DNA of 64,000 nt. It comes from Bacteroides sp. GTDB lineage: Bacteria; Bacillota; Clostridia; Lachnospirales; Lachnospiraceae. Positions 2,816-64,000 of this stretch are shown one piece after another (the stretch's first letter is position 1; every line of letters begins with the position of its first letter). A program made the translations under genes and the position numbers. The stretch covers positions 32,461-96,460 of the forward strand of contig JAMPBO010000006.1 of NCBI GenBank assembly GCA_023666705.1. Reading direction: 5' to 3'. The notes under the pieces were generated by a model. It was not told the origin of the DNA. It did not search any database and worked only from the letters and a program-made list of their open reading frames with translations.

Positions 2816-2962
2816 AACCATTATCTAAACGATATATAAAAGCAATTTCAAGGTCATAAATAAAATCACAAAATTATAGTTTGACAAAATCTATCATGGA
2901 CACACGAAGGATATATACGAGGTATATAATGAAATTATAAAAGCGGTTATTTAGAAAATAGG

Positions 2963-3005
2963 CAATTGCGAAATGTCGTATTATCGAAAAGTAGTTTCGC
3001 AATTG
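2963..3005. promoter_or_regulatory. Perfect 11-bp inverted repeat (CAATTGCGAAA-N21-TTTCGCAATTG) in the orphan histidine-kinase leader
   Basis: Read directly from the sequence; the repeat ends 37 bp before the start codon at 3042. Confidence 0.5.
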
Positions 3006-3041
3006 ACTATATTTTAGAAAACAATGAAAGGAGAGGTGTCC

Positions 3042-4970: not shown

Positions 4971-6017
4971 TTAATCAACGGTTACATTGATACTGCCTAA
5001 GTCGCAGGAAATGTTAATGATTCCTGTGCCGCGTGTATGATATTCTTTTCCCTGGTTATCATTGTTGAAGTAGATACTGCTTAAGTCACAGGAAAGGTCA
5101 AAACCGTAATAGTTGCGGTTTTGATCTTCCGCTATAAGCTTTACGTCTGCACTTCCCATATCAAGGTCAGCAGTCATACGGTTCTTTATGGATGTGGCTG
5201 CAATGTCAAGCTTGCCCATATCAAGGTCAAAGTCCGCATCGTTTATGGTACAATCCGTAATTGTTGCATTTCCCATATCAAGATCTGCGGATATGCTGTT
5301 TATGTTGCAGTTGTCAATTGAAAGACTTCCCATGTCAAGGTCAAGCTCTAAATTATTTATATCCGCACCTGTCAGGTTGATGCTTCCATCGCTAAGCTCT
5401 GCATAAACCGTTTCAAAAAAAGTATGTTCCGGATAATAAATTGTCACATACCCCCAAGTGTCATCGTCATCAAGGTGAAAGCTTATGTTGAAATGTTCAC
5501 CATCGTCAATATACAGGGTTCCGTCTTTAATATAATAAGGTGTGTCTGTGTCAGCTGTGAGGTCGTATGCAATGTAGTAGCCATCGGATGGAGTAAATAC
5601 CACGGTTGCATTGGTATCAATCTCAACCTTGTCAAAGCTGTCAATTGCTGTTTTTTCTAAGGTATGATGTAAATGGCTGCTATCCTTATCCCAATACATG
5701 GTATGCTTTTTGGGGATATAAATACCTAGAAAAAAAGTAAAGACAACGGAAACAATTACCAGTGCAATAATAAATGGCTTGAGTGGGCTCTTCTTTTTCG
5801 GAATGTCATAATTTGAGCGGGCACCTTGATTAAGCTCTAAGTCGAGTATATTGTCAGCAAGCTCCCGCGGAGTTCCAAGCTTGGCGGTAAGGTCCTCACC
5901 CTCTGCTTCAAGACGGGAGGTATATTCACTGTAAAAATCCAAAACCTTATTTTTTTGTTCTTGCGGTAAATCTGCAAGATAACCGCCCAGCTCTGTTAAA
6001 TATTTATCTCTGTTCAT
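4971..6017 (-). CDS. DUF1700 (N-terminal helical) / DUF4097 (beta-helical 'putative adhesin') membrane protein
   Basis: MNRDKYLTELGGYLADLPQEQKNKVLDFYSEY matches the DUF1700 start. One TM segment (FIIALVIVSVVFTFFLGIY) follows, then repeated DLDMG/NxS beta-helix-like units. RBS GAGGCA... is upstream. The start is set at the internal Met; the ORF-track start at 6071 is probably over-extended. Confidence 0.55.
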   Translation of the reverse strand: MNRDKYLTELGGYLADLPQEQKNKVLDFYSEYTSRLEAEGEDLTAKLGTPRELADNILDLELNQGARSNYDIPKKKSPLKPFIIALVIVSVVFTFFLGIYIPKKHTMYWDKDSSHLHHTLEKTAIDSFDKVEIDTNATVVFTPSDGYYIAYDLTADTDTPYYIKDGTLYIDDGEHFNISFHLDDDDTWGYVTIYYPEHTFFETVYAELSDGSINLTGADINNLELDLDMGSLSIDNCNINSISADLDMGNATITDCTINDADFDLDMGKLDIAATSIKNRMTADLDMGSADVKLIAEDQNRNYYGFDLSCDLSSIYFNNDNQGKEYHTRGTGIINISCDLGSINVTVD

Positions 6018-6112
6018 AATTAAATCATGCCTTTCATTTTTTAATGAATAATTTGTTTTACATTTTAACATCTTTTTAAAATATTTTCATCCCTCTTTTG
6101 CTTTTTATTAGC

Positions 6113-6305
6113 CGTGAGCAAAATGTACTATTTCAAACTTAGTTGTGCAATATAGACAATATCACAAGCGAGGCATTGTGAAGCCGTCGGTACTTAGCGA
6201 GGTTTTTCGAGCTTAGTACCGTTACGTGCGACACATAGCGAAAGCGTGCCTTGCGGTGATTTGTCTATGTTGTACAACGGAAGTTCATAAAAGTAATGTT
6301 TTGCT
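6113..6305. repeat. Palindromic intergenic repeat family A, copy 1 (arms ~6113-6160 and 6262-6305 with ~100-bp structured insert)
   Basis: Left arm gagcaaaatgtactatttcaaacttagttgtgcaa. Right arm ttgtacaacggaagttcataaaagtaatgttttgct is its imperfect reverse complement. The central segment holds a further hairpin (ggtacttagcgag...cgagcttagtacc). Confidence 0.7.
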
Positions 6306-6452
6306 TATCTCTATTTTTATAGCCATGAACGAAACTCTGTTTTCGTAAAATGTATAAAATCAATCTACAATTATCCTTGCATAAAGCGGTTCCTTATAAT
6401 AAAATAAAAAGTGGTTATATGGGCGGATGTCCCAAGAGTTAGGAGGAAAATT

Positions 6453-7166
6453 ATGAAAATAAAATCTTTGGCATCGGAGCTTAGTGCTACATCTTATCCC
6501 GGACGTGGTATCATCATAGGAAGAACTCCGAATGGGAAAAAAGCGGCAATGGCATATTTTATCATGGGAAGAAGTGCCAACAGCAGAAACCGTATATTCG
6601 TGGAATCGGGAGAGGGTATCAGGACAGAGGCATTTGACCCCTCCAAGCTTGAGGATCCGAGTCTGATTATATATGCACCGGTAAGAGTGCTTGGCAATAA
6701 GACAATCGTTACAAATGGAGACCAGACAGATACCATATATGAGCTTATGGATAAGCAGTTCACATTTGAGCAGGCACTCAGAACAAGAGAATTTGAGCCT
6801 GATGCACCAAATTATACCCCAAGAATTTCGGGGATTCTTCACCTTGATGACGGTGAATATAATTATGCAATGTCAATTCTGAAAAGCAACAACGGAAATC
6901 CTGATGCATGCAACAGATACACGTTTGCATACTCTAAGCCTGTAGCAGGAGAGGGGCATTTTATCCATACGTATATGGGAGACGGAAACCCGCTTCCAAG
7001 CTTCGAGGGAGAACCTGTACTCGTGGATATACCAGATGATATGAATGTGTTCGCTGATATTGTTTGGAACAGTCTGGATGATGACAATAAGGTATCCTTA
7101 TTTGTGAGATACATAAATATTGAAGATGGAACCTATGAGTCAAAAATAATAAACAAAAACGCATAG
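6453..7166 (+). CDS. purO: IMP cyclohydrolase, archaeal PurO type
   Basis: RBS AGGAGG precedes ATG at 6453. MKIKSLASELSATSYPGRGIIIGRTPNGKKAAMAYFIMGRSANSRNRIF is the characteristic PurO N-terminus. An AICARFT-only purH sits immediately downstream. Confidence 0.65.
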   Translation: MKIKSLASELSATSYPGRGIIIGRTPNGKKAAMAYFIMGRSANSRNRIFVESGEGIRTEAFDPSKLEDPSLIIYAPVRVLGNKTIVTNGDQTDTIYELMDKQFTFEQALRTREFEPDAPNYTPRISGILHLDDGEYNYAMSILKSNNGNPDACNRYTFAYSKPVAGEGHFIHTYMGDGNPLPSFEGEPVLVDIPDDMNVFADIVWNSLDDDNKVSLFVRYINIEDGTYESKIINKNA

Positions 7167-7194
7167 CTTGTGCAAGGAAGAGAAAGGGACTAAA

Positions 7195-8373
7195 ATGAAC
7201 GAAATAGAATTAAAATACGGTTGTAACCCAAACCAGAAACCATCGAGAGTTTACATGAAGGAGGGAGGACAGCTCCCGATTGAGATATTAAACGGAAAGC
7301 CGGGATACATAAACCTGCTGGATGCATTTAACGGCTGGCAGTTAGTCAAGGAATTAAAAAAGGCGACGGGACTTCCTGCTGCGACTTCCTTTAAGCATGT
7401 ATCTCCTGCAGGTGCGGCGGTGGGACTTCCGCTTACGGAGGTTGAAAGAAAAATTTACTGGGTGGATGACATGGGTGAGCTGTCACCGCTTGCAAATGCA
7501 TATGCAAGGGCAAGAGGAGCGGACAGAATGTCTTCCTTTGGAGACTTTATTTCACTTTCAGATGTTTGTGATGTTGCAACTGCCAAACTGATAAAGCGTG
7601 AGGTTTCGGATGGAATCATTGCTCCCGGCTATGAGCCTGAGGCACTTGAAATACTTGCCGCAAAGAAAAAAGGAAATTACTGTGTCATAAAAATTGATGA
7701 GGCATATACCCCTGCGGCAGTGGAGACGAAGGATGTATTTGGTGTTACATTTGAGCAGGGAAGAAATGAGCTTGTAATCGATGATGCACTTTTTGCAAAT
7801 ATCGTTACCAAAAATAAAGCGATGACGGAGCAGGCAAAGATAGATTTGGCAATCGCAATGATTACACTCAAGTATACACAGTCAAACTCGGTATGCTATG
7901 CAAAGGGCGGTCAGGCGATAGGAATCGGTGCAGGACAGCAGTCCAGAATTCACTGTACAAGGCTTGCGGGACAGAAGGCTGACAACTGGTTTTTGCGTCA
8001 GTCGCCAAAGGTGCTGAACCTTCCGTTTCAGGATGGCATAGGACGTGCGGACAGGGACAACACAATTGATGTATATATGAGCGATGATTATATGGATGTT
8101 CTTGCAGATGGAACATGGGAAAAATTCTTTACAAAAAAGCCTGAGGTATTTACGAGAGAAGAAAAACGTGCATGGCTTGATCAGATGCAGGACGTGGCAC
8201 TTGGCTCGGATGCATTTTTCCCATTTGGAGACAACATAGAGCGTGCATCCAAGAGCGGAGTAAAGTACATTGCACAGCCGGGAGGCTCCATACGTGATGA
8301 CAATGTTATTGAAACCTGTGACAAATATGATATGGTAATGTGTTTTACGGGAATTCGCTTATTCCACCATTGA
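7195..8373 (+). CDS. purH: AICAR transformylase (PurH lacking the IMP cyclohydrolase domain)
   Basis: MNEIELKYGCNPNQ...SFKHVSPAGAAVG...GGSIRD are AICARFT-domain motifs. There is no MGS/IMPCH domain. ~390 aa. Confidence 0.8.
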   Translation: MNEIELKYGCNPNQKPSRVYMKEGGQLPIEILNGKPGYINLLDAFNGWQLVKELKKATGLPAATSFKHVSPAGAAVGLPLTEVERKIYWVDDMGELSPLANAYARARGADRMSSFGDFISLSDVCDVATAKLIKREVSDGIIAPGYEPEALEILAAKKKGNYCVIKIDEAYTPAAVETKDVFGVTFEQGRNELVIDDALFANIVTKNKAMTEQAKIDLAIAMITLKYTQSNSVCYAKGGQAIGIGAGQQSRIHCTRLAGQKADNWFLRQSPKVLNLPFQDGIGRADRDNTIDVYMSDDYMDVLADGTWEKFFTKKPEVFTREEKRAWLDQMQDVALGSDAFFPFGDNIERASKSGVKYIAQPGGSIRDDNVIETCDKYDMVMCFTGIRLFHH

Positions 8374-8382
8374 TGACATATG

Positions 8383-8441
8383 GCGAAAGTATGATTTATC
8401 CATATTGTACAACGGACGGTTTCAAAACATAGGGTTTTGCA
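8383..8441. repeat. Palindromic intergenic repeat family A, copy 2 (compact)
   Basis: gcgaaagtatgatttatccatattgtacaacggacggtttcaaaacatagggttttgc. It shares the ttgtacaacgga core and both arms with copy 1. It lies just after the purH stop. Confidence 0.6.
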
Positions 8442-8472
8442 ATTGTAAAAATAATGAAAAGGAGGCGGACAA

Positions 8473-13125: not shown

Positions 13126-13340
13126 TCGTAGAAAAAATGTCTTAGATGGCAGCCTGTTTGGGTTTAATATTTTGATGACATATAGGTGAATTTGGGTGTA
13201 CAATAAGAAAACGGTTGTATGCGGTTGCCAAGCTGATAAAAACCGATGGTTGTACGATATAGACAAAATAGTGGAGGTGTGCCCTGTTGTGATTCGTGTA
13301 TGCCAATACAGACGGACAAAGGGCAAAAGGTAGAAAAAAT

Positions 13341-28928: not shown

Positions 28929-29062
28929 GAAGGGGCTGTCACAGTAAGGATTTGAGGCACACTTAAAATTACACTGACAAGCCCTTTTTTATTTTGTATT
29001 TTTATAATTACCGGCTATCTTTAACATATTGATATTTTGTTTTTTCTATTATGTGGGGCACG
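28929..29062 (+). repeat. Repeat family B copy 1 (terminator hairpin + ~75-bp tail); outer left arm of the large palindrome
   Basis: aggggctgtcacagtaaggatttgaggcacacttaaaattacactgacaagccc + T-run, then ttgtatttttataattaccggctatctttaacatattgatattttg... It is near-identical to 39758-39897. Confidence 0.75.
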
Positions 29063-29339
29063 GACTGTTGTCTGAGTGCACAGCCTTATGTTGCCAGTCA
29101 ATATGTGTATTTTGAATTGCAACTTTTAAGACCGCAAGAATACCTCCACATTTGAAATTTGCGATGTTTGATTACATGCTGCTTAGGCGAAACTCGCTTC
29201 GCTCAGACATCGCTACGCAGCATGTTTCATCGCAAATTATCAAATGTGGGTATTCTAAACGGTCTTGTTGTCAAATTCAAAATACACATACTGACTGGCA
29301 ACATGGCTGTGTACGAGTTCAAGGGAGTGCCCCACAAGC
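29063..29339. repeat. Inner ~280-bp imperfect palindrome (symmetry centre ~29200)
   Basis: Left half gttgccagtcaatatgtgtattttgaatt...catgctgcttaggcga. Right half tcgctacgcagcatg...aattcaaaatacacatactgactggcaac. The halves are ~85% reverse-complementary. Confidence 0.7.
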
Positions 29340-29465
29340 CATAATAGAAAAGCAAAATATCTTAATATGCTTAGATAGCACAGGTTATAAAAATACAAAA
29401 TAAAAGAGGGCTTGTCACAGGTAAACAACTATGTGCCTTAAATCCTTACTGTGACAGCCCCTTTT
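29340..29465 (-). repeat. Repeat family B copy 2 (inverted); outer right arm of the large palindrome, terminator for the minus-strand gene
   Basis: The reverse complement reads ggggctgtcacagtaaggatttaaggcaca...gacaagccctcttttattttgtatttttata... Confidence 0.75.
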
Positions 29466-33538: not shown

Positions 33539-35213
33539 ATGAAAGTAAAGAAAGCAATTTGTATGCTTGTCAGCATACTCATGATTGTGATCTCCCCGAT
33601 ACCTTTTGCGTGCATGGGGGGTAGCAAAGGCTGCTGAAAAATTAACGTATCAGGATTGGGAATATGAGATACTCGAAGAAGAGTGTGTGAAGATTACCCG
33701 ATATAATGGAAGTGAAGAAGAGGTTGTTATACCTGAGGAAATTGACGGAAAAAAAGTAACTTTCATAGGAACAGGTGCATTTGGTGGAGAAAGTAGTCTG
33801 ACAGGTGTAGAAGTTCCATCAAGTGTAATAAATATAGAAGATTCTGCATTTAATTGCAATAATGATTTTATAATGTATGGAGAGGCAGATTCGGCAGCAC
33901 AGAAGTATGCAATTGAAAACAATATAAAATTTGTTGTTGGAAGTATGCCGGAATCTTCAGTTTGGGTATATTCAGAGTTAGATGATGGAACTGTGGAGAT
34001 TGTAGAATATCACGGAAGGGGACCGGAAGTTGTTATACCCGAAAAAATTGATGGTAAAACAGTATCGAAGATATTGAGTGATGTATTTGGTGGTGCGAAT
34101 TTGGTAAGTATAAAAATACCATCAGGCGTAACAACCATAGATGAGTACACAGTTGTGAATTGCGACAATTTGGAACGTATAGAAATTCCGGAAAGTGTAA
34201 AACATATAGATCGTTCGGCATTTTATAAATGCAATAAGTTTGTAATATATGGAAAAGAAGGATCTTATGCACATGAATACGCAATTGAAAATAATATAAA
34301 GTTTGTTGCAAACGTGCCTGCGGATCCTATTATTGTCGGAGAAATTTTTATTGACAGGAAGTCAAGGGGTGAATACAAGGTTACAGGGAAATCAACAGTA
34401 TCTTACATGGGGAGAGAATTAACAGCTCCGCTAGTGAAGACCCTTAGAATACCTGATACGGTATTCTATAAGGGAAAAACATTAAAGGTAACAGCAGTAT
34501 ATAAAGGAGCATTTAAAGGAGCATTAGAAGGAACATTAAAGAATTACCATTGCCTAAAAATTTGTCAAGTTATTCTTGGAAAAAATATTACAACAATTGG
34601 AAGTGAAGCTTTTAGTGGGTGTCGTAACCTTCAAATAATAACCTTTAATTCCAACCTTACCAAGATCGGAGACAAGGCATTTTACAATTGTAAAAGGCTT
34701 ACACAGGTAAAGCTAGGCAGTAAGGTAACAACGATAGGCAAGTCAGCATTTGCAGAATGTGAGAAGCTGAATAAGGTAACCCTTGGTTCAGGACTTACCA
34801 CAATCGGAGACAAGGCATTTTACAATTGTAAGGTTCTTACACAGGTAAAGCTAGGCAGTAAGGTGACAACGATAGGCAAGTCAGCATTTGCAGGATGTGA
34901 GAAGCTGAATAAGGTAACCCTTGGTTCAGGACTTACTACAATCGGAGACAGTGCCTTTAACAAGTGTATAGCACTTACCGCTATTACAATTCCGGCAAAG
35001 GTAAAGAAAATAGGAAAGCAGGCGTTCTATGGATGTAAGAAGCTAAAGAGCATAACAATCAGTACAACGAAGCTGAAAAGCTCAAATGTTGGAGCAAATT
35101 CGTTCAAGGGTATATATGCCAAGGCAACGATAAAGGTTCCAAAGAGCAAAAAAGCTGCCTACAAGAAGCTCATAAAGAGCAAGGGTGCAGGCAAGAACGT
35201 GAAATATAAGTAG
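33539..35213 (+). pseudogene. BspA-type leucine-rich-repeat surface protein interrupted by a +1 frameshift in a G6 tract (possible phase-variable gene)
   Basis: RBS AAAAGGAGG precedes ATG at 33539, which encodes the signal peptide MKVKKAICMLVSILMIVISPIPFACMG. The frame then hits TGA at 33635-33637. The long ORF (33606-35213, LRR_5 repeats ITTIGSEAFSGC / LTTIGDKAFYNCK) is in the +1 frame. The junction is GGGGGG at 33616-33621. Removing one G gives ...PFACMGVAKAAEKLTYQD, with a plausible AKA-A signal cleavage site. Confidence 0.6.
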
Positions 35214-35271: not shown

Positions 35272-36141
35272 TTAAGTCATATTGATATATTTCTCAGCTT
35301 CTTCGGGAGATAGGTTATATTTATTGATTAGTACTTCTGTGATTTTGCTGTCTGATAAACCGTTTTCCCGAAGGAGGGCAATCGTAGTTGTAATCGTTTC
35401 AGAAATGCCCTGCTTGCGTCCTTCACTACGTCCGATGTCGATGCCTTGTTCTAAGCCATCCTCTACACCTTCTTCATATTTTTCTCGATAATGCATTTCA
35501 AGCGTCATATAATCAATCCTCCACTTCTCATTATTTTTCACGGACTTAACTGCAGTTTCTAGCTTCATGGTAAAATCATCCGATGCTGCCTGACCGTCTA
35601 TGTAATTAAGTAACCGTTTCATTTCAGGTGTTATATCGTCCATCGTACCCTTGGTATTTAATATAATCTTTGTTGTCTCATCGCCAAGACTGATTTCGTA
35701 ATCCTGTAAGCATCTGTTTTCAAATGTGTAAATATGTCGTCCCTTGCCGAATAAATCAAAGGTACAGACAAAAATGACAAAGCTCCGTTTTAGTTCTTTG
35801 TAGTCTCCGCCCTTTTCCAGTACATTCAGGTCTATCATTCCCTGATAATATCTTGACCGTTTTGGCAGATTTTTATTTATGGATACCTGCATTTCTATAT
35901 TATAAACGGTATTCTTGTCATCTTCAACATAAACATCCAAACGGACAGACTTTGCATCTGCTGTAATGTTTATGGTTTCCTGTGTTCTCGGATATTCTAT
36001 GTCGGAGATGCTTATACCAAGTATTGTTTCCAGAAATGGTTTGCAATACTTGGGGTTCCGCATAATAACCCCAAACATGAAATCATCCTTCAGCTCCAGT
36101 TTCTCAAAGCTTTTGACAGTTCTCGTTTCTTTTTTGTTCAT
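35272..36141 (-). CDS. Rpn-family recombination-promoting nuclease / putative transposase (PD-(D/E)xK, YhgA-like)
   Basis: LKDDFMFGVIMRNP, RLDVYVEDDKNTVYNIEMQ and LPKRSRYYQGMIDLNVLEKG are conserved Rpn/YhgA-like blocks. Acidic C-terminal tail. Confidence 0.75.
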   Translation of the reverse strand: MNKKETRTVKSFEKLELKDDFMFGVIMRNPKYCKPFLETILGISISDIEYPRTQETINITADAKSVRLDVYVEDDKNTVYNIEMQVSINKNLPKRSRYYQGMIDLNVLEKGGDYKELKRSFVIFVCTFDLFGKGRHIYTFENRCLQDYEISLGDETTKIILNTKGTMDDITPEMKRLLNYIDGQAASDDFTMKLETAVKSVKNNEKWRIDYMTLEMHYREKYEEGVEDGLEQGIDIGRSEGRKQGISETITTTIALLRENGLSDSKITEVLINKYNLSPEEAEKYINMT

Positions 36142-36612
36142 TCAATTTCCTCCCTTGTCCTTTGGACATGATCCATGGTTTTGCCGAACCCTTGCGGAAT
36201 ATACATCGTGTAAAACCAATTTGTTGCCAGTAATAATCAATCACGTCAGGCAGAGAAGAGTATTGAACAAATATGCTTTTCGGTGAGTCCTGCTTAAGCC
36301 AACCTGTCAAATACAGTTTGTTTCTTGCTTGAAATCTTTGTTACAGCACTCCGCTGCCTATTTTTGTGAAATAAAGCATCGAAGTTATTTGATAACAGAT
36401 TCGTTAGGAATGGCTGTAAGCCACAAATAAAAATAGAATACAATGCTCTCAAAACATATTACCATGTGCGTATGAAAAATACAATCTTTTTTTACGGTTG
36501 CTTAAAAATAATCTGTCTAATAAGGTAGAAATTATAATTTATTTGGCGGACGATTATGGACAGCCTTAAGAGTTTATTATGGTATCATACATCGTATACA
36601 ATATAATTTAGC

Positions 36613-36684
36613 GATGAGCAAAACGCATTATTTCCAAAACATGGTTGTACAATGAATGTTCGTAAAAGTAGTGTTTTGCTCATG
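36613..36684. repeat. Palindromic intergenic repeat family A, copy 3 (compact, arms adjacent)
   Basis: gagcaaaacgcattatttccaaaacatggttgtacaa | tgaa | tgttcgtaaaagtagtgttttgctc. The arms are reverse complements of each other and match copies 1 and 2. Confidence 0.7.
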
Positions 36685-36713
36685 GTTATATAATTTCGAA
36701 AAGGGGGATGTAC

Positions 36714-37469
36714 ATGGATAATTTTATGATAAAGGATGCCACAAAAAGGCTGGGAATTGAAGCACATGTACTTAGATATTGGGAGGAGGAGCTTGGGCTT
36801 GAAATAAAGAGAAACAGCATGGGACACCGCTATTACGAGGAAAAAGATTTGCGGATGTTTGGTGAAATCAAGCGGCTTCGGGCAGATGGAGTGTCCCTGA
36901 AGGATATTAAGAAAAGTATTGATGGTGCAAGGAAAAAGTCGCAGGAAATGAAAAAGGAAGCGGCGGGATCTGAAGCTGAACAGAAGATGAAACCAGAGGA
37001 AGTCAGGTGTGCAGAGAGCAGGCTTGAAGAAAATAAACAGGAAACAAACAAGCCGGAAGCAAATAAATCGGATAACCCTAAAAATACAAATAAAATTGAA
37101 CGAGATATGGGACAACAGGGGGCGGACAGGGACGGAAAAGAAAAAAATACGGAGCTTTCCACAGGTGGAGAATCCTTGACGGAGGAACAGAACAACATTG
37201 TGGATTTTAAAATTGCACAGATGCAGACATTAATGAACCGGATTGTTGCCAATGCATTTAGGGAAAATAAGGGGGTTCTTACCAGTACCATTAAGTCGGA
37301 GATTACAGAGGATGTAATGAAACAGATGGATGTTATTATGCGGGAAAAGGAAGAACGCGAGGAGGCAAGATTCAGGAAGCTGGATGAGTATTTAAGGCAA
37401 ATCCAACGTGCAAATGAGGAGGTTGCTGCAACGAAAAGTAAAAGATTATTTGGCAGGAAAAGACATTAA
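36714..37469 (+). CDS. MerR-family transcriptional regulator with long charged C-terminal tail
   Basis: HTH IKDATKRLGIEAHVLRYWEEELGL plus dimerisation helix. The C-terminus is K/E-rich low complexity. RBS AAGGGGGA precedes ATG at 36714. Confidence 0.75.
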   Translation: MDNFMIKDATKRLGIEAHVLRYWEEELGLEIKRNSMGHRYYEEKDLRMFGEIKRLRADGVSLKDIKKSIDGARKKSQEMKKEAAGSEAEQKMKPEEVRCAESRLEENKQETNKPEANKSDNPKNTNKIERDMGQQGADRDGKEKNTELSTGGESLTEEQNNIVDFKIAQMQTLMNRIVANAFRENKGVLTSTIKSEITEDVMKQMDVIMREKEEREEARFRKLDEYLRQIQRANEEVAATKSKRLFGRKRH

Positions 37470-39757: not shown

Positions 39758-39897
39758 AAAGAGGGCTGTCACAGTAAGGATTTAAGGCACACTTAAAATT
39801 ACACTGACAAGCCCTCTTTTATTTTGTATTTTTATAGTTACCGACTATCTTTAGCATATTGATATTTTGTCTTTTCTGTTATGTGCGACAGCCCCGC
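39758..39897 (+). repeat. Repeat family B copy 3 (solo, MITE-like, ~10-bp imperfect terminal inverted repeats); its hairpin is the proS terminator
   Basis: gagggctgtcacagtaaggatttaaggcacacttaaaattacactgacaagccctc + TTTTATTTTG, then a tail ending ...gtgcgacagcccc. Start GGGCTGTCAC and end GCGACAGCCC are inverted. Confidence 0.7.
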
Positions 39898-59900: not shown

Positions 59901-60920
59901 TTTAAAGACGGAAAGCTGAAATTTGCAACAGGAAAGTTTTCTGTATATGCAGTAGCAATTGAGGAGGTTGTGCCAACCGCTATCAAGATTACAACCCCTC
60001 CAACCAAAACAAAATATACGGTTGGTGATAAGTTTGATAAGAAGGGAATGGTAGTTCAGGTAACATATTCTGATGGAACGACAAAGAATGTTACGGACTA
60101 TAAGGTATCGACGACTGCTGCTTTGAAAAAGACCGATAAGGCGATTACGGTTACATATGGAACCTGTACCGTAAAGCAGGCAATTACTGTAAGTGAAGTG
60201 GCAACCAAGGTAGGAGATACGGTGACCGTAGGTGGTAATACATACAAGGTTACCAGTGTTAAGGCAGGCAAGCAGGCTGTTACCCTTACAAGCGGAAGCA
60301 AGACGGCAGCTACAGTTACAATCCCTGCTACGGTTACAATTAAGAATGTAAAGTACAAGGTAACTGCAATTGCAGACAAGGCATTCTATAAACGCACAAA
60401 GCTTACAACCGTTAAGCTTTCAGCTAACGTAACAGCGATTGGTAAGTCTGCATTTGAAGGCTGTAGCAAGCTTAAGAAGGTGACATTTAATAAGAACCTT
60501 AAAACATTAGGCGATAAGGCATTTTACAATTGTAAGGCACTGACGCAGGTGACGCTTGGCAGCAAGGTTACAACAATCGGTAAGTCTGCATTTGCAAGCT
60601 GTACAAAGCTCGCAAAGGTAACACTTGGCACAGGACTTACAACAATAGGAAATACAGCATTCAACAAGTGTACAGCTTTGACATCTGTTGTGATTCCAAA
60701 GAATGTAAGCAAGATTGGAACGCAGGCATTTTACGGATGTAAGAAGTTAAAGACCATAACGATTCAGACAAGCAAGCTGACAACGAAGAATGTGGGAAAT
60801 AAGGCATTCAAGGGAATTTATGCAAAGGCAACCATCAAGGTACCAGCAAAGAAGTTAGCAAGCTATAAGAAAATCTTAAAGGCAAAGGGCGTAGGCTCAA
60901 AGGCTAAGATTAAAAAGTAA
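56916..60920 (+). CDS. Very large secreted surface protein: divergent N-terminal beta-rich region, Big/Ig-like domain, C-terminal BspA-type LRR module, lysine-rich tail
   Basis: RBS AAAAGGAGGA precedes ATG at 56916. The frame is open from 56772, but the signal peptide MRVKKKRAALLLVFCMVFSLFVGIPLNASA begins at 56916. The C-terminal 230 aa are ~65% identical to the C-terminus of the 33606-35213 LRR protein. Confidence 0.75.
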   Translation: MRVKKKRAALLLVFCMVFSLFVGIPLNASAEEGEQTGLLIQDDIYWDNDGVPALEENAQTKKATWANVLYGLTLHLSYMESEGATATVVSLENITVTLDEEDVKEKTVKANEKNNEMIDFTFDAVGDYIVTYNNSSITIHVSYPTIGFYTTNIPSVDSMIKDEIQKIDGEDKTVYMILHRGGWEKLDLGSVQYTKDDEENIDAGYFTITGPSKTLSTDPSEYLTEENYVYEIQINEDMKESFSFNVKVDLYRVTAAGEEGDLTYSFTDNPETSRQGINISYKQKKDGLFVVDWLDWGTPKLNDDSSPVLDDEGNAVYEEDGKVAPNPNAMPSKEIWQTISGCSLYLGYAANEIGEDAAMKDLTLAPVTAENITVLYEGTAAKEDKVKYYTNKNWDAEGNEVTNDTITDFEFYRTGTYTIQYTKDDVTSSVTVYVSLPEVGFYSSNTASESTYMRDGNYERGTEKSFYVIPRPENGEDATTYTYKLETEEVPDGAVYVEVDGAALNPEAEYTDTAKITITADARGGFGLKARGVATPAEGEPWEFDYYIYCEDTYETITIEDGVEHKGFAGCFISKDMYDASRMDPSLADTTLYWVHAETMQGVIDKLMETAEAGTVTVNGKSYTIENTGYIWANVSYFPEYKGNATKPLYVTTSDVEGILFASNFEMYYTEEKNDVGSYYEVKLWEKKNGGGEVTDEYVSCLMDDGKYYPVTRTGEEDSTENPLKFNVTTDGEGKTEDELIGEGYVLNEGYGIGCQWPELHVDATTNVKIIGDFSEAAENRANVYLGLYKDSDIVSLIVDGEENEDGNFDFKEITKNDIGKADITTNKGLVVKVNELKATMDATVVGNFISADAVTIEEDGGKALRDKIAIEELFADDEDLKKAIIDGEALDVSMNVKTVESSETESAPVKEGINKISTLIGSGKNKTSKIQYLDIGLQYQVGTKTGDIAETKEDITVSIDLPKDFAKAHADLSKSWTPVVYRYHDGKAEKLDSAFKDGKLKFATGKFSVYAVAIEEVVPTAIKITTPPTKTKYTVGDKFDKKGMVVQVTYSDGTTKNVTDYKVSTTAALKKTDKAITVTYGTCTVKQAITVSEVATKVGDTVTVGGNTYKVTSVKAGKQAVTLTSGSKTAATVTIPATVTIKNVKYKVTAIADKAFYKRTKLTTVKLSANVTAIGKSAFEGCSKLKKVTFNKNLKTLGDKAFYNCKALTQVTLGSKVTTIGKSAFASCTKLAKVTLGTGLTTIGNTAFNKCTALTSVVIPKNVSKIGTQAFYGCKKLKTITIQTSKLTTKNVGNKAFKGIYAKATIKVPAKKLASYKKILKAKGVGSKAKIKK

Positions 60921-62863: not shown

Positions 62864-64000
62864 ATGAGGACGTTTAACTTCAAGGCAAGAAATATTGGAG
62901 AGGAAAAGTATTTAACTTACACAATGGGGGAAGAGTGTGAGTTAGATGAGGACGTTCTGGATTATTGTGAGGAAAATGATGTAAAGGAAATATTGGATAT
63001 AATTTACGAAGAAGATGATGACTACGATTACCTCACATATGATATTACGGGAAGGGTTACGCTTGAGGATTACATTAAGAAGGAAATGAATGCGGAAAAG
63101 GTTCTCAATATTTTGAGAAATGTTGCATCGGGTCTTATTTCCCTCAAGGAGCAGGCAGTTCAGCTCTCGTACATATTGTTGAACAAAAGCTTTGTGTACA
63201 TTGATGAAGAAACATATGCACTTCAATTTATTTGTCTGCCGATTGAAAGCAAGGGGTCACTCGCTGTTGAATTTAAAGGCTTTGTGAGACAATTGCTTGC
63301 GAACATGAAGTATGATGTGGACGAGCAGCTTGGGTATGTTGGAAAGCTGCTGACCTATATCAATGGAGACTCCTTCAATTTACGTGGACTGGTAGGGTTG
63401 ACGGAAGCACTTATGGAGGAGTGCGAGATAAGCTTCGAGGAAGCAGGAACAATTGAGGCGGACGGAGTAGAGGTAGTATCGGAAGAACCTGAACTGAAAG
63501 CAGAGCCATCAGATAATGTTGCTGATTTTATGAATTATGCGGCAAGTGAGGGTGAAGTGCTTCCTGAAATAGGCGATGATGAGGAAGACGAGGATGAGGA
63601 TGAGGAAGAAATCGATGCTGCCATTGATGATGAGCTTGACAGCATACTTCCTGCAGGTATGAAGGTAGCTGAAAACGCAGATGCGGGCATGTCAGCAGAA
63701 GAAATTGAAAATGAAATACCTGAGATATCGATTGAGGATATAAAAGCTGAAGCAGTGCCTGAGGCAGAAGAAGCAATGCCACAGGTTGAGGAGATAAAAG
63801 CAGAGGCAGAACCGCAGGTTAAGGAGATAAAGGCAGAGGCGGCACCGTGGGTTGAGGAGATAAAAGCAGAGACAGAACCGCAGGTTGAAGAAGTAAAAGC
63901 AGAGACAGAACCGCAGGTTGAAGAAGTAAAAGCAGAGACAGAACCGCAGGTTAAAGAGGTAAAGGCAGAGACAGAACCGCAGGTTGAAGAGGTAAAGGCA
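62864..64000 (+). CDS. Partial CDS (5' part) of an acidic repetitive protein; N-terminal ~200-aa globular domain followed by an 11-aa repeat array, continuing beyond the window
   Basis: RBS AGGAGGG precedes ATG at 62864. The open frame runs to the window end with no stop. The repeat region is E/K/A/P-rich (EIKAEAEPQVE x N). Confidence 0.5.
   Translation, partial: MRTFNFKARNIGEEKYLTYTMGEECELDEDVLDYCEENDVKEILDIIYEEDDDYDYLTYDITGRVTLEDYIKKEMNAEKVLNILRNVASGLISLKEQAVQLSYILLNKSFVYIDEETYALQFICLPIESKGSLAVEFKGFVRQLLANMKYDVDEQLGYVGKLLTYINGDSFNLRGLVGLTEALMEECEISFEEAGTIEADGVEVVSEEPELKAEPSDNVADFMNYAASEGEVLPEIGDDEEDEDEDEEEIDAAIDDELDSILPAGMKVAENADAGMSAEEIENEIPEISIEDIKAEAVPEAEEAMPQVEEIKAEAEPQVKEIKAEAAPWVEEIKAETEPQVEEVKAETEPQVEEVKAETEPQVKEVKAETEPQVEEVKA
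63756..64000 (+). repeat. 33-bp in-frame tandem repeat array (at least 7 units, truncated by the window end)
   Basis: Consensus unit gaRgaRRtaaaRgcagagRcagaaccgcaggtt. Units differ by a few synonymous or conservative changes. Confidence 0.8.

Follow-up and report, generated by a model that had tools for sequence, protein, structure and literature searches.

MITEs (miniature inverted-repeat transposable elements) of bacteria, such as Correia/nemis of Neisseria and RUP of Streptococcus pneumoniae, are about 200 bp long and free of open reading frames (ORFs), are bounded by terminal inverted repeats and target duplications, occur in many intergenic copies that differ between related strains, and can fold as a whole into one long stem-loop if transcribed (PMC3184786). 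Another described case, bcr1 from the Bacillus cereus group, a repeat of ~155 bp among the Group A bcr repeats, is MITE-like as well, with direct-repeat flanks, a distribution that is not conserved between close relatives, and compensatory base changes that maintain a double-stranded structure (PMC3184786). Here we describe repeats of this type in a 64,000-nucleotide stretch of contig JAMPBO010000006.1 (hereafter the window), three of which had been noticed in an initial annotation as a palindromic family bracketing the purine biosynthesis genes purO and purH. We consider it very probable that these repeats are one intact copy and decayed copies of a non-coding MITE, and that their placement around purO-purH is incidental. 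The family shares with Correia/nemis and RUP each of the MITE traits listed above, a likeness of features, with none expected in sequence. Correia and RUP duplicate TA, unlike the window family with its long target duplication of about 11–12 bp, and the window family is most conserved at its center instead of its termini. With bcr1 it has in common a Firmicutes host, direct-repeat flanks, a patchy presence in close relatives and compensatory changes, whereas the 5-bp direct repeats, the cruciform-like fold with two stem-loops, the known transcription, the host clade, and the sequence of bcr1 are all different.

Copy 1, the repeat upstream of purO, represents the canonical form of the element, because both the profile hidden Markov model (HMM) of the family and the copies in other genomes are colinear with it. 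The unit of the family is therefore ~205 bp long, not ~70 bp as first thought, and the ~100-bp structured segment that had been taken for an insert in copy 1 is its native core, present in nearly all copies from other genomes. Copy 1 contains no ORF of 50 aa or more. When the window was searched by nhmmer with an HMM derived from family members of other genomes, copy 1 matched over its full length (E = 1e-54 over all loci, HMM positions 12–234), copy 2, located after purH, matched with its right arm only (E = 4e-8, HMM positions 174–227), and copy 3, located upstream of a MerR-family gene, matched with its left arm (E = 6e-4 against all loci and 3.5e-5 for the window by itself) and weakly with its right arm. 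Within the window, copies 1 and 3 also have 37 nt in common at 86% identity (E about 2e-4) and copies 1 and 2 have 25 nt in common at 88% (E 0.04–0.14), with the direct repeat linking copy 2 to copy 1 (D20) extending over 36 nt at 78%. The three copies thus lie at about the positions first reported and are related beyond chance. A reading of them as chance palindromes in AT-rich intergenic DNA could draw on the short shared motif TTGTACAAYGRA, which by itself is not significant in the window (4 matches vs 1.7 expected, a count reached by 8 of 100 shuffles), but is refuted by the HMM E-values and by hundreds of homologues elsewhere, and we give it essentially no weight.

The copies in the window differ in completeness (Table 1). 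Folded as RNA, copy 1, a near-perfect long palindrome, yields a 193-nt hairpin with a minimum free energy of -90.4 kcal/mol, vs -49.8 ± 4.4 for shuffled sequences (z = -9.2), and copy 3 is a 72-nt palindrome with a fold z-score of -4.3; no significant structure was detected for copy 2 (z = -1.2). The arms described as mutually reverse complementary in all copies are so in copies 1 and 3, whereas copy 2 consists of the right arm and a piece of the core only. Copy 3 lacks everything between the two TTGTACAA boxes of the element, themselves a pair of 8-bp direct repeats, and copy 2 is a 3′ fragment. Nor are these three the only copies. A more sensitive nhmmer pass over the window added matches at 13216–13301, a degenerate copy upstream of nadA, and at 2953–3003, corresponding to a mini copy whose flanking repeats follow the pattern T(T/A)(A/T)TTTAGAAAA. 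In addition, a possible remnant of an older copy directly follows copy 1; it has no nhmmer match of its own, the envelope of copy 1 extending to position 6334. Overall, the core is entirely or mostly gone from four of the window's five additional copies or fragments.

Table 1. Copies of the element in the window, their parts, and adjacent genes and features (positions are those of the window)
Feature	Position	Strand	Sequence or layout	Basis
Copy 1, full-length element, 205 bp	6109–6313	+		nhmmer, fold, comparison with relatives
Copy 1, termini			TAGCCGTGAGCAAAAT...GTTTTGCTTATCTCTA	sequence
Copy 1, inner arms			TTGTGCAATATAGACAAT / TTGTCTATGTTGTACAA	sequence
Copy 1, center			predicted three-way-junction core with AGC-GAAA-GCG hairpin	
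Copy 1, left target-site duplication	6102–6108		TTTTTAT	read from sequence
Copy 1, right target-site duplication	6314–6320		TTTTTAT, directly abutting the right end	
Copy 2, 3′ part only, no left arm	8375–8447	+		nhmmer, direct repeat D20
Copy 2, parts			core piece GACATATGGCGAAAG, right inner arm TGATTTATCCATATTGTACAACGGA, right terminus GTTTTGCAATTGTA	
Copy 3, internal-deletion derivative, inner arms and core lost	36609–36687	+	both outer arms meet at a single TTGTACAA	nhmmer, fold
Copy 3, flanking repeats	36601–36608 and 36688–36695		ATATAATT	
Mini copy, 51 bp	2959–3009	+	whole left outer arm fused to right terminus, TAGGCAATTGCGAAATGTCGTATTATCGAAAAGTAG+TTTCGCAATTGACTA	inverted repeat I13; nhmmer E = 0.018; sequence read
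Mini copy, flanking 11–12-bp target duplication	2947–2958 and 3010–3021		TTATTTAGAAAA (left), TATTTTAGAAAA (right)	
Degenerate, internally deleted copy upstream of nadA (weak)	13216–13301	+		nhmmer E = 0.003–0.011
Possible left-arm remnant of an older copy (weak)	6321–6354	+	AGCCATGAACGAAACTCTGTTTTCGTAAAATGTA vs arm AGCCATGAGCAAAACNCACTATTTCNNAAATGTA	visual comparison
Promoter-like block, downstream of copy 1 and not part of the element	6377–6405	+	TTGCAT-17-TAAAAT, overlapping TATAAT	
purO (IMP cyclohydrolase-like)	6453–7166			
purH (AICARFT)	end at 8373			
MerR_1 gene	36708–37469			Pfam

The ends of the element carry the features that assign it to the MITEs. Its terminal inverted repeats are 16–18 bp long and of two types, TAGRYAATTGCGAAAC...GTTTCGCAATTRYCTA and TAGCCATGAGCAAAAC...GTTTTGCTCATGGCTA, the two ends being mutual reverse complements, and the motif GCGAAACTC is found near both ends in most subgroups of the wider superfamily. 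Direct repeats of 8–13 bp, most often 11–12 bp, abut these termini and vary from copy to copy (e.g., AATTTATTTTTT, ATTTTAGATTTA, CCTTTCATTTATT, ACAAGCACTGAA, and ATAGTAAAAGCAG). Exact flanking repeats of at least 8 bp were observed for 22 of 57 copies and of at least 10 bp for 11 of 57, compared with 6.2% and 0.7%, respectively, in a control in which left and right flanks were permuted between copies, and the longer repeats cluster at 11–13 bp. Along with a small size (generally below 200–400 bp in MITEs), the lack of a transposase ORF, and dispersed copies that vary between relatives, these terminal repeats and target duplications match the published definition of MITEs (Delihas 2011, PMC3184786).

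The family has multiplied in Eshraghiella-related Lachnospiraceae and belongs to a wider superfamily in gut Clostridia. Scanning one genome per species with the pattern ATTTRTCYATRTTGTACAAYGR yielded more than 115 stretches among the matches listed, nearly all of them in about a dozen Lachnospiraceae-type metagenome-assembled genomes (MAGs), with at least 14 copies in CAMWYM01, at least 10 in CAZRKN01, and at least 7 in each of JAAVIA01 and CAMWYJ01, although the labels on some of these carrier MAGs (e.g., “uncultured Bacteroides”) are doubtful. A restriction to the three loci of the window, which would have pointed to chance palindromes, is thus clearly not what is found. Nearly every match was full length (195–230 bp) and colinear with copy 1, core included; copies of the family range from 195 to 260 bp, and an HMM derived from 58 of them recovered 158 non-overlapping copies, 73 of them full length, in the fetched DNA. 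These are almost always intergenic, typically end 15–35 nt from the next start codon, and have diverse neighbors, including ABC transporters, two-component systems, nadA, cbiMQ, and dnaG. In viral contigs, the arm pattern gave chance matches only, inside a phage gene, and the core pattern gave none, while BLAST found no copies in the plasmid collection. Four partial matches in the phage collection came from unverified human-faecal “Bacteriophage sp.” scaffolds and proved to be other subfamilies adjoining bacterial-type genes. The family is new but of a well-known kind: no description of it was found in Rfam or in the literature searches run, which used sequence words and the combination of MITE with Lachnospiraceae or Clostridiales and returned nothing relevant. 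Separately, one copy of another subfamily (L141:500–1114, minus strand) has a T-box leader (RF00230, 104.5 bits) on one side and, on the other, the ribosome-binding site of the gene under that leader's control; an insertion inside a riboswitch-type 5′ untranslated region is therefore tolerated.

The gene context first given for the three copies (purO, the purH stop codon, and a MerR gene) holds. Copy 1 is placed between two divergent genes, copy 2 begins 2 nt past the purH stop codon and fills the spacer up to ~10 nt ahead of the ribosome-binding site of the next gene, and copy 3 ends ~15 nt ahead of the ribosome-binding site of the MerR-family gene. The encoded PurO shares 86% identity with the Eshraghiella crossota protein, which places the host in the Lachnospiraceae, and the window matches contig JAMPEX010000007.1 of assembly GCA_023664715.1 at 100% identity. 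The arrangement of the copies had led to the proposal that copy 1 is a candidate cis-element of the purO leader, and more broadly the copies could be binding sites or leader elements of the purine operon, such as a PurR-type operator or a riboswitch-like leader. While this would be in keeping with copies on both sides of purO-purH and with the lack of a purine riboswitch in the window, which Rfam confirmed with no match, we regard it as highly improbable given the same loci in relatives, i.e., fetched loci encoding PurO 97% (L001) and 91% identical plus more distant ones. Copy 1 is absent upstream of purO in L001 and in L003, L004, L005, L006, L007, and L008, and hence is conserved in no relative examined, and copy 2 is absent from the orthologous spacer after purH in L001, L005, and L006. 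This spacer measures 34 bp in L001 vs 99 bp in the window, the difference being copy 2. Moreover, the same element occurs beside many unrelated genes and in both orientations. Among tandem gene contexts, 30 copies were on the same strand and 50 on the opposite strand in the genome set, and 16 and 16, respectively, in the metagenome set, i.e., there is no orientation bias toward flanking genes of the kind needed by a cis-acting RNA. In line with the initial view that the copies are not obvious terminators, no terminator-like site was found in 6000–6500, the region of copy 1.

Copy 1 further lies upstream of a conserved promoter-like block and is therefore probably outside the purO leader RNA. 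Upstream of purO, all relatives examined (including L001, L005, L006, and L008) carry CTTGCA, followed after 11–12 nt by TTATAATAAAAT, and the block at 6377–6405 that corresponds to it is interpreted as a putative promoter. A simple promoter scan did not call this block, because its first hexamer matches at 3 of 6 positions. A false lead is thereby removed, the purO-purH region being without a repeat-based regulator, and the promoter-like block becomes the feature worth study for purine control. Elsewhere, L001 harbors a full-length homologue of copy 1, “insert” included, upstream of nadA (L001:16748–16900, 82.6% over 155 nt). The nadA intergenic region of the window has only the shortened degenerate copy, and the two nadA-upstream insertions are likely orthologous, as far as can be told from a pairwise alignment that is ambiguous.

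The surroundings of purO vary in other ways as well. In L001, an extra ~90 nt, absent from the window, separates the promoter-like block of purO from the ribosome-binding site (AATGTACTAATACTAGTCGTGTCAGTTTTATAAAATCTGACATGCAGCGTCAACGCATTTGCTAAGGGCAAATTTTG, within L001:9860–9985), and this segment, which contains hairpins, is unrelated to the MITE. In the relatives with 91% identical PurO (L006:8977–9906 and L007:2729–3658), the DUF4097 gene and purO are separated by an inserted Endonuclease_NS_2 gene, so that just 94 nt remain upstream of purO, with the promoter-like block kept. The DUF4097-purO intergenic region is a rearrangement hotspot.

The initial suggestion that the repeats could be REP/BOX-like is apt insofar as they form a high-copy dispersed intergenic repeat family, and is made more precise by the terminal inverted repeats and target duplications of a MITE. 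REP/REPIN and BOX elements are similar to the window family as dispersed, hairpin-forming intergenic repeats that are often transcribed within mRNAs. BOX elements are modular (A, B, and C boxes) and are not known to have terminal inverted repeats or target duplications. Spread as REP/REPIN palindromes by a RAYT (Y1 HUH) transposase, or as palindrome-associated elements of the IS200/IS605 type moving as single-stranded DNA, would account for the hairpin-forming intergenic repeats and for a hint of strand-specific pairing in the core, yet seems to us a very remote prospect. Variable duplications of 8–13 bp abut the ends of the element, and RAYT/REP and IS200/IS605-type systems are not known to make such target duplications. 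The latter insert without target duplication, in a strand-specific manner, and with different hairpins at their two ends, whereas the ends here are reverse complementary and the copies show no orientation bias relative to genes. In addition, no RAYT- or IS200-type transposase gene was seen near the copies among the clustered neighboring ORFs. REPs are also far smaller than the ~205-bp unit with variable target duplications described here, being 20–40 bp long and carrying GTAG or CGTC tags (PMC3733652).

Several observations weigh against a MITE. In the fetched loci, we found neither an autonomous element nor a transposase that has the matching termini, and mobilization in trans is for this reason something that we infer. 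ORFs located between paired arms were ordinary genes (glycosidase, histidine kinase, MgsA, and CbiMQ), the clustering of 1,771 neighboring ORFs returned ABC ATPases, response regulators, kinases, AraC regulators, and MATE transporters with no recurrent transposase, and in no copy of the fetched loci were the core halves split by 0.3–5 kb, i.e., no version carried an ORF between the halves. Exact duplications of at least 8 bp flank only about 40% of the copies; those of the remaining copies may have diverged or escaped detection, as the search was for exact matches. A preference for positions immediately upstream of ribosome-binding sites is likewise not explained by a MITE. Finally, the strongest conservation in the superfamily is that of an asymmetric central core and not of the termini, a pattern unusual among MITEs that points to an additional function. 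As a side observation, a “transposase” gene of the PD-(D/E)XK nuclease family (PF12784) is encoded on the minus strand at 35272–36141 of the window, ~470 nt from copy 3, with no evidence found linking this gene to the element, and the neighbor-ORF clustering brought up, in 8 loci, a different family annotated as PD-(D/E)XK-type.

If the repeats are a MITE, a transposase encoded elsewhere would bind the termini and insert the element at a target cut with a stagger of about 11 bp. IS4-family transposases of the IS231 group are Firmicutes enzymes that produce 10–12-bp target duplications and mobilize non-autonomous derivatives bounded by their own inverted repeats. The ~11-bp spacing would fit enzymes of this IS4/IS231 type, with the length of the duplication as the single point of likeness, and the same applies to the comparison with the IS231 group and its MIC231 cassettes. 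Copies would then decay after insertion, with the long hairpin favoring slippage deletions: slippage between the two TTGTACAA boxes could have produced copy 3, and the mini copy and the 5′-truncated copy 2 may be further decay products. An effect on neighboring genes through a ~95-bp hairpin formed upon transcription through the element, e.g., by RNase III cleavage or altered mRNA stability, is a speculative possibility.

The core was also found well beyond the family present in the window. Metagenome contigs scanned with the core alone (ACCGYTRCGWGCGACN{3,6}AGCGNNAGCGTG) yielded at least 120 stretches, mostly from human and animal gut, and the matches listed include at least 20 subfamilies that retain the same core between 60–80-nt arms that are <75% identical to one another. 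The core consensus, GGAGCCGYCGG-YCTTAG-[hairpin]-CTTAGTACCGYTRCGAGCGAC-N4-AGC-GNRA-GCGTG, is ~70 nt long and asymmetric. In the predicted fold, a long closing stem made of outer and inner arms leads to a junction, to a bulged stem whose tip varies, and to a two-pair GNRA-capped hairpin. The proposed motif would be an asymmetric three-way junction that combines G-A pairs in tandem, a U-U mismatch that is conserved (CUUAG/CUUAG), and the GNRA-capped hairpin. This motif is common to at least 20 gut Clostridia subfamilies in which the arms have been fully replaced by compensatory change. RNAalifold returned 48 pairs for 57 canonical copies, 19 of them with compensatory changes. Across 28 diverse sequences, 91.1% of cells were paired vs 74.6% after shuffling (none of 500 shuffles reached the observed value), changes affected both sides in 34 of 50 pairs, and the covariation score was 0.50 vs 0.20 for shuffled sequences and at most 0.13 for slid registers. 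Of 57 copies whose selection had not involved the loop, 54 have a GNRA loop, and the third loop position was always a purine in the metagenome set, for which the two middle loop positions had been left free.

These features are also what would be expected if the element were instead a mobile structured RNA or single-stranded DNA module, in which the three-way-junction core is functional, for example in the element's own propagation or as a small RNA cargo, and the arms serve only to close the structure. In favor of this alternative, which we hold to be unlikely, are the core kept across subfamilies with divergent arms, the pairing, double changes, and covariation above shuffled and slid controls, and the GNRA loop, as well as signs of strandedness: in the canonical family, G-U wobbles occur at a frequency of at least 3 in 11 pairs and A-C in none, tip hairpins display 31 internal G-U contexts vs 8 A-C by a method that favors G-U somewhat, and the core folds better on the plus strand in 57 of 57 copies. 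Conversely, the arms of 20 subfamilies show no strand asymmetry (58 G-U vs 72 A-C, p = 0.25, gapped register), singleton mutations private to single copies are about symmetric, and a bias in orientation relative to host genes is absent. No promoter is conserved inside the element, where weak matches at any one position are limited to 18 of 57 copies or fewer, and the single copy scanned for terminators gave none. Rfam 15 gave no match to the window at gathering score and none on 6050–6400 at E up to 10, and for 20 loci of other subfamilies no family matched the element, with only weak microRNA-precursor overlaps (E 0.18–1.5). Moreover, the loss of the core in four of the five further window copies or fragments implies that single copies are not maintained by the host, and apparent covariation can also be produced by inverted repeats that are bound by one protein or homogenized between arms. 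Taken together, the evidence on RNA vs single-stranded DNA vs DNA-only is mixed.

We thus retain the MITE as the preferred explanation. Within it, there is perhaps some chance, if a modest one, that the MITE shell carries, or even exists to carry, an undescribed structured motif that acts as RNA or single-stranded DNA in its own propagation, e.g., as a structure for recognition, priming, or guidance of an enzyme, in which case the family would amount to more than what passive deletion leaves of an insertion sequence. Our reading is that single copies evolve close to neutrally while multiplying lineages retain the core, and the core therefore probably matters for propagation rather than for the host. 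Among known motifs considered, a hammerhead ribozyme was rejected for the CUGGGGA...GAC junction, since the positions equivalent to A6 and A14 are not conserved by eye and there was no Rfam hammerhead match, and resemblances to PurBox, ssoA CS-6, and relaxase nic sites were dropped, as the bases involved lack conservation within the family. In some copies the variable tip also contains small nested hairpin modules of a secondary kind, among them ATGTCCTGAGGTGKCTGCGWAGCAGACGGWGTCCTGAGGACAA and AAAAAGCTTCGCTTTTTAATCATCATTTTGCTCCGCAAAATAACGATAT (L022:195–313, L130:2797 and 3506; L048:4358–4614 and 6999–7247, L136); each recurs in separate copies, and these modules may themselves be mobile.

In uncultured Lachnospiraceae of the gut, these repeats define a MITE family of high abundance as well as a wider superfamily, and the conserved core is a specific candidate structured motif, new and linked to mobility. 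Since the next start codon is often no more than a few tens of bases away, copies mark recent insertions, can confuse the discovery of motifs and RNAs in these genomes, and may alter the expression of their neighbors.

The window includes other repeats. A ~535-bp segment at 28930–29465 is bounded by long inverted repeats (33–34-nt arms, 94–100% complementary; pairs I1–I5), and a 128-bp copy of one of its ends lies 10.8 kb away at 39758–39890 with 93% identity (D4); this segment may be another non-autonomous element, or the separate repeat family designated “family B” in the initial annotation. A tandem 33-nt repeat (63733–64000, D2) runs off the end of the window. Finally, repeats with a 138-nt period are common to two distant genes (34656–35093 and 60369–60797; D1, D3), and these units probably encode protein repeat domains of surface proteins.

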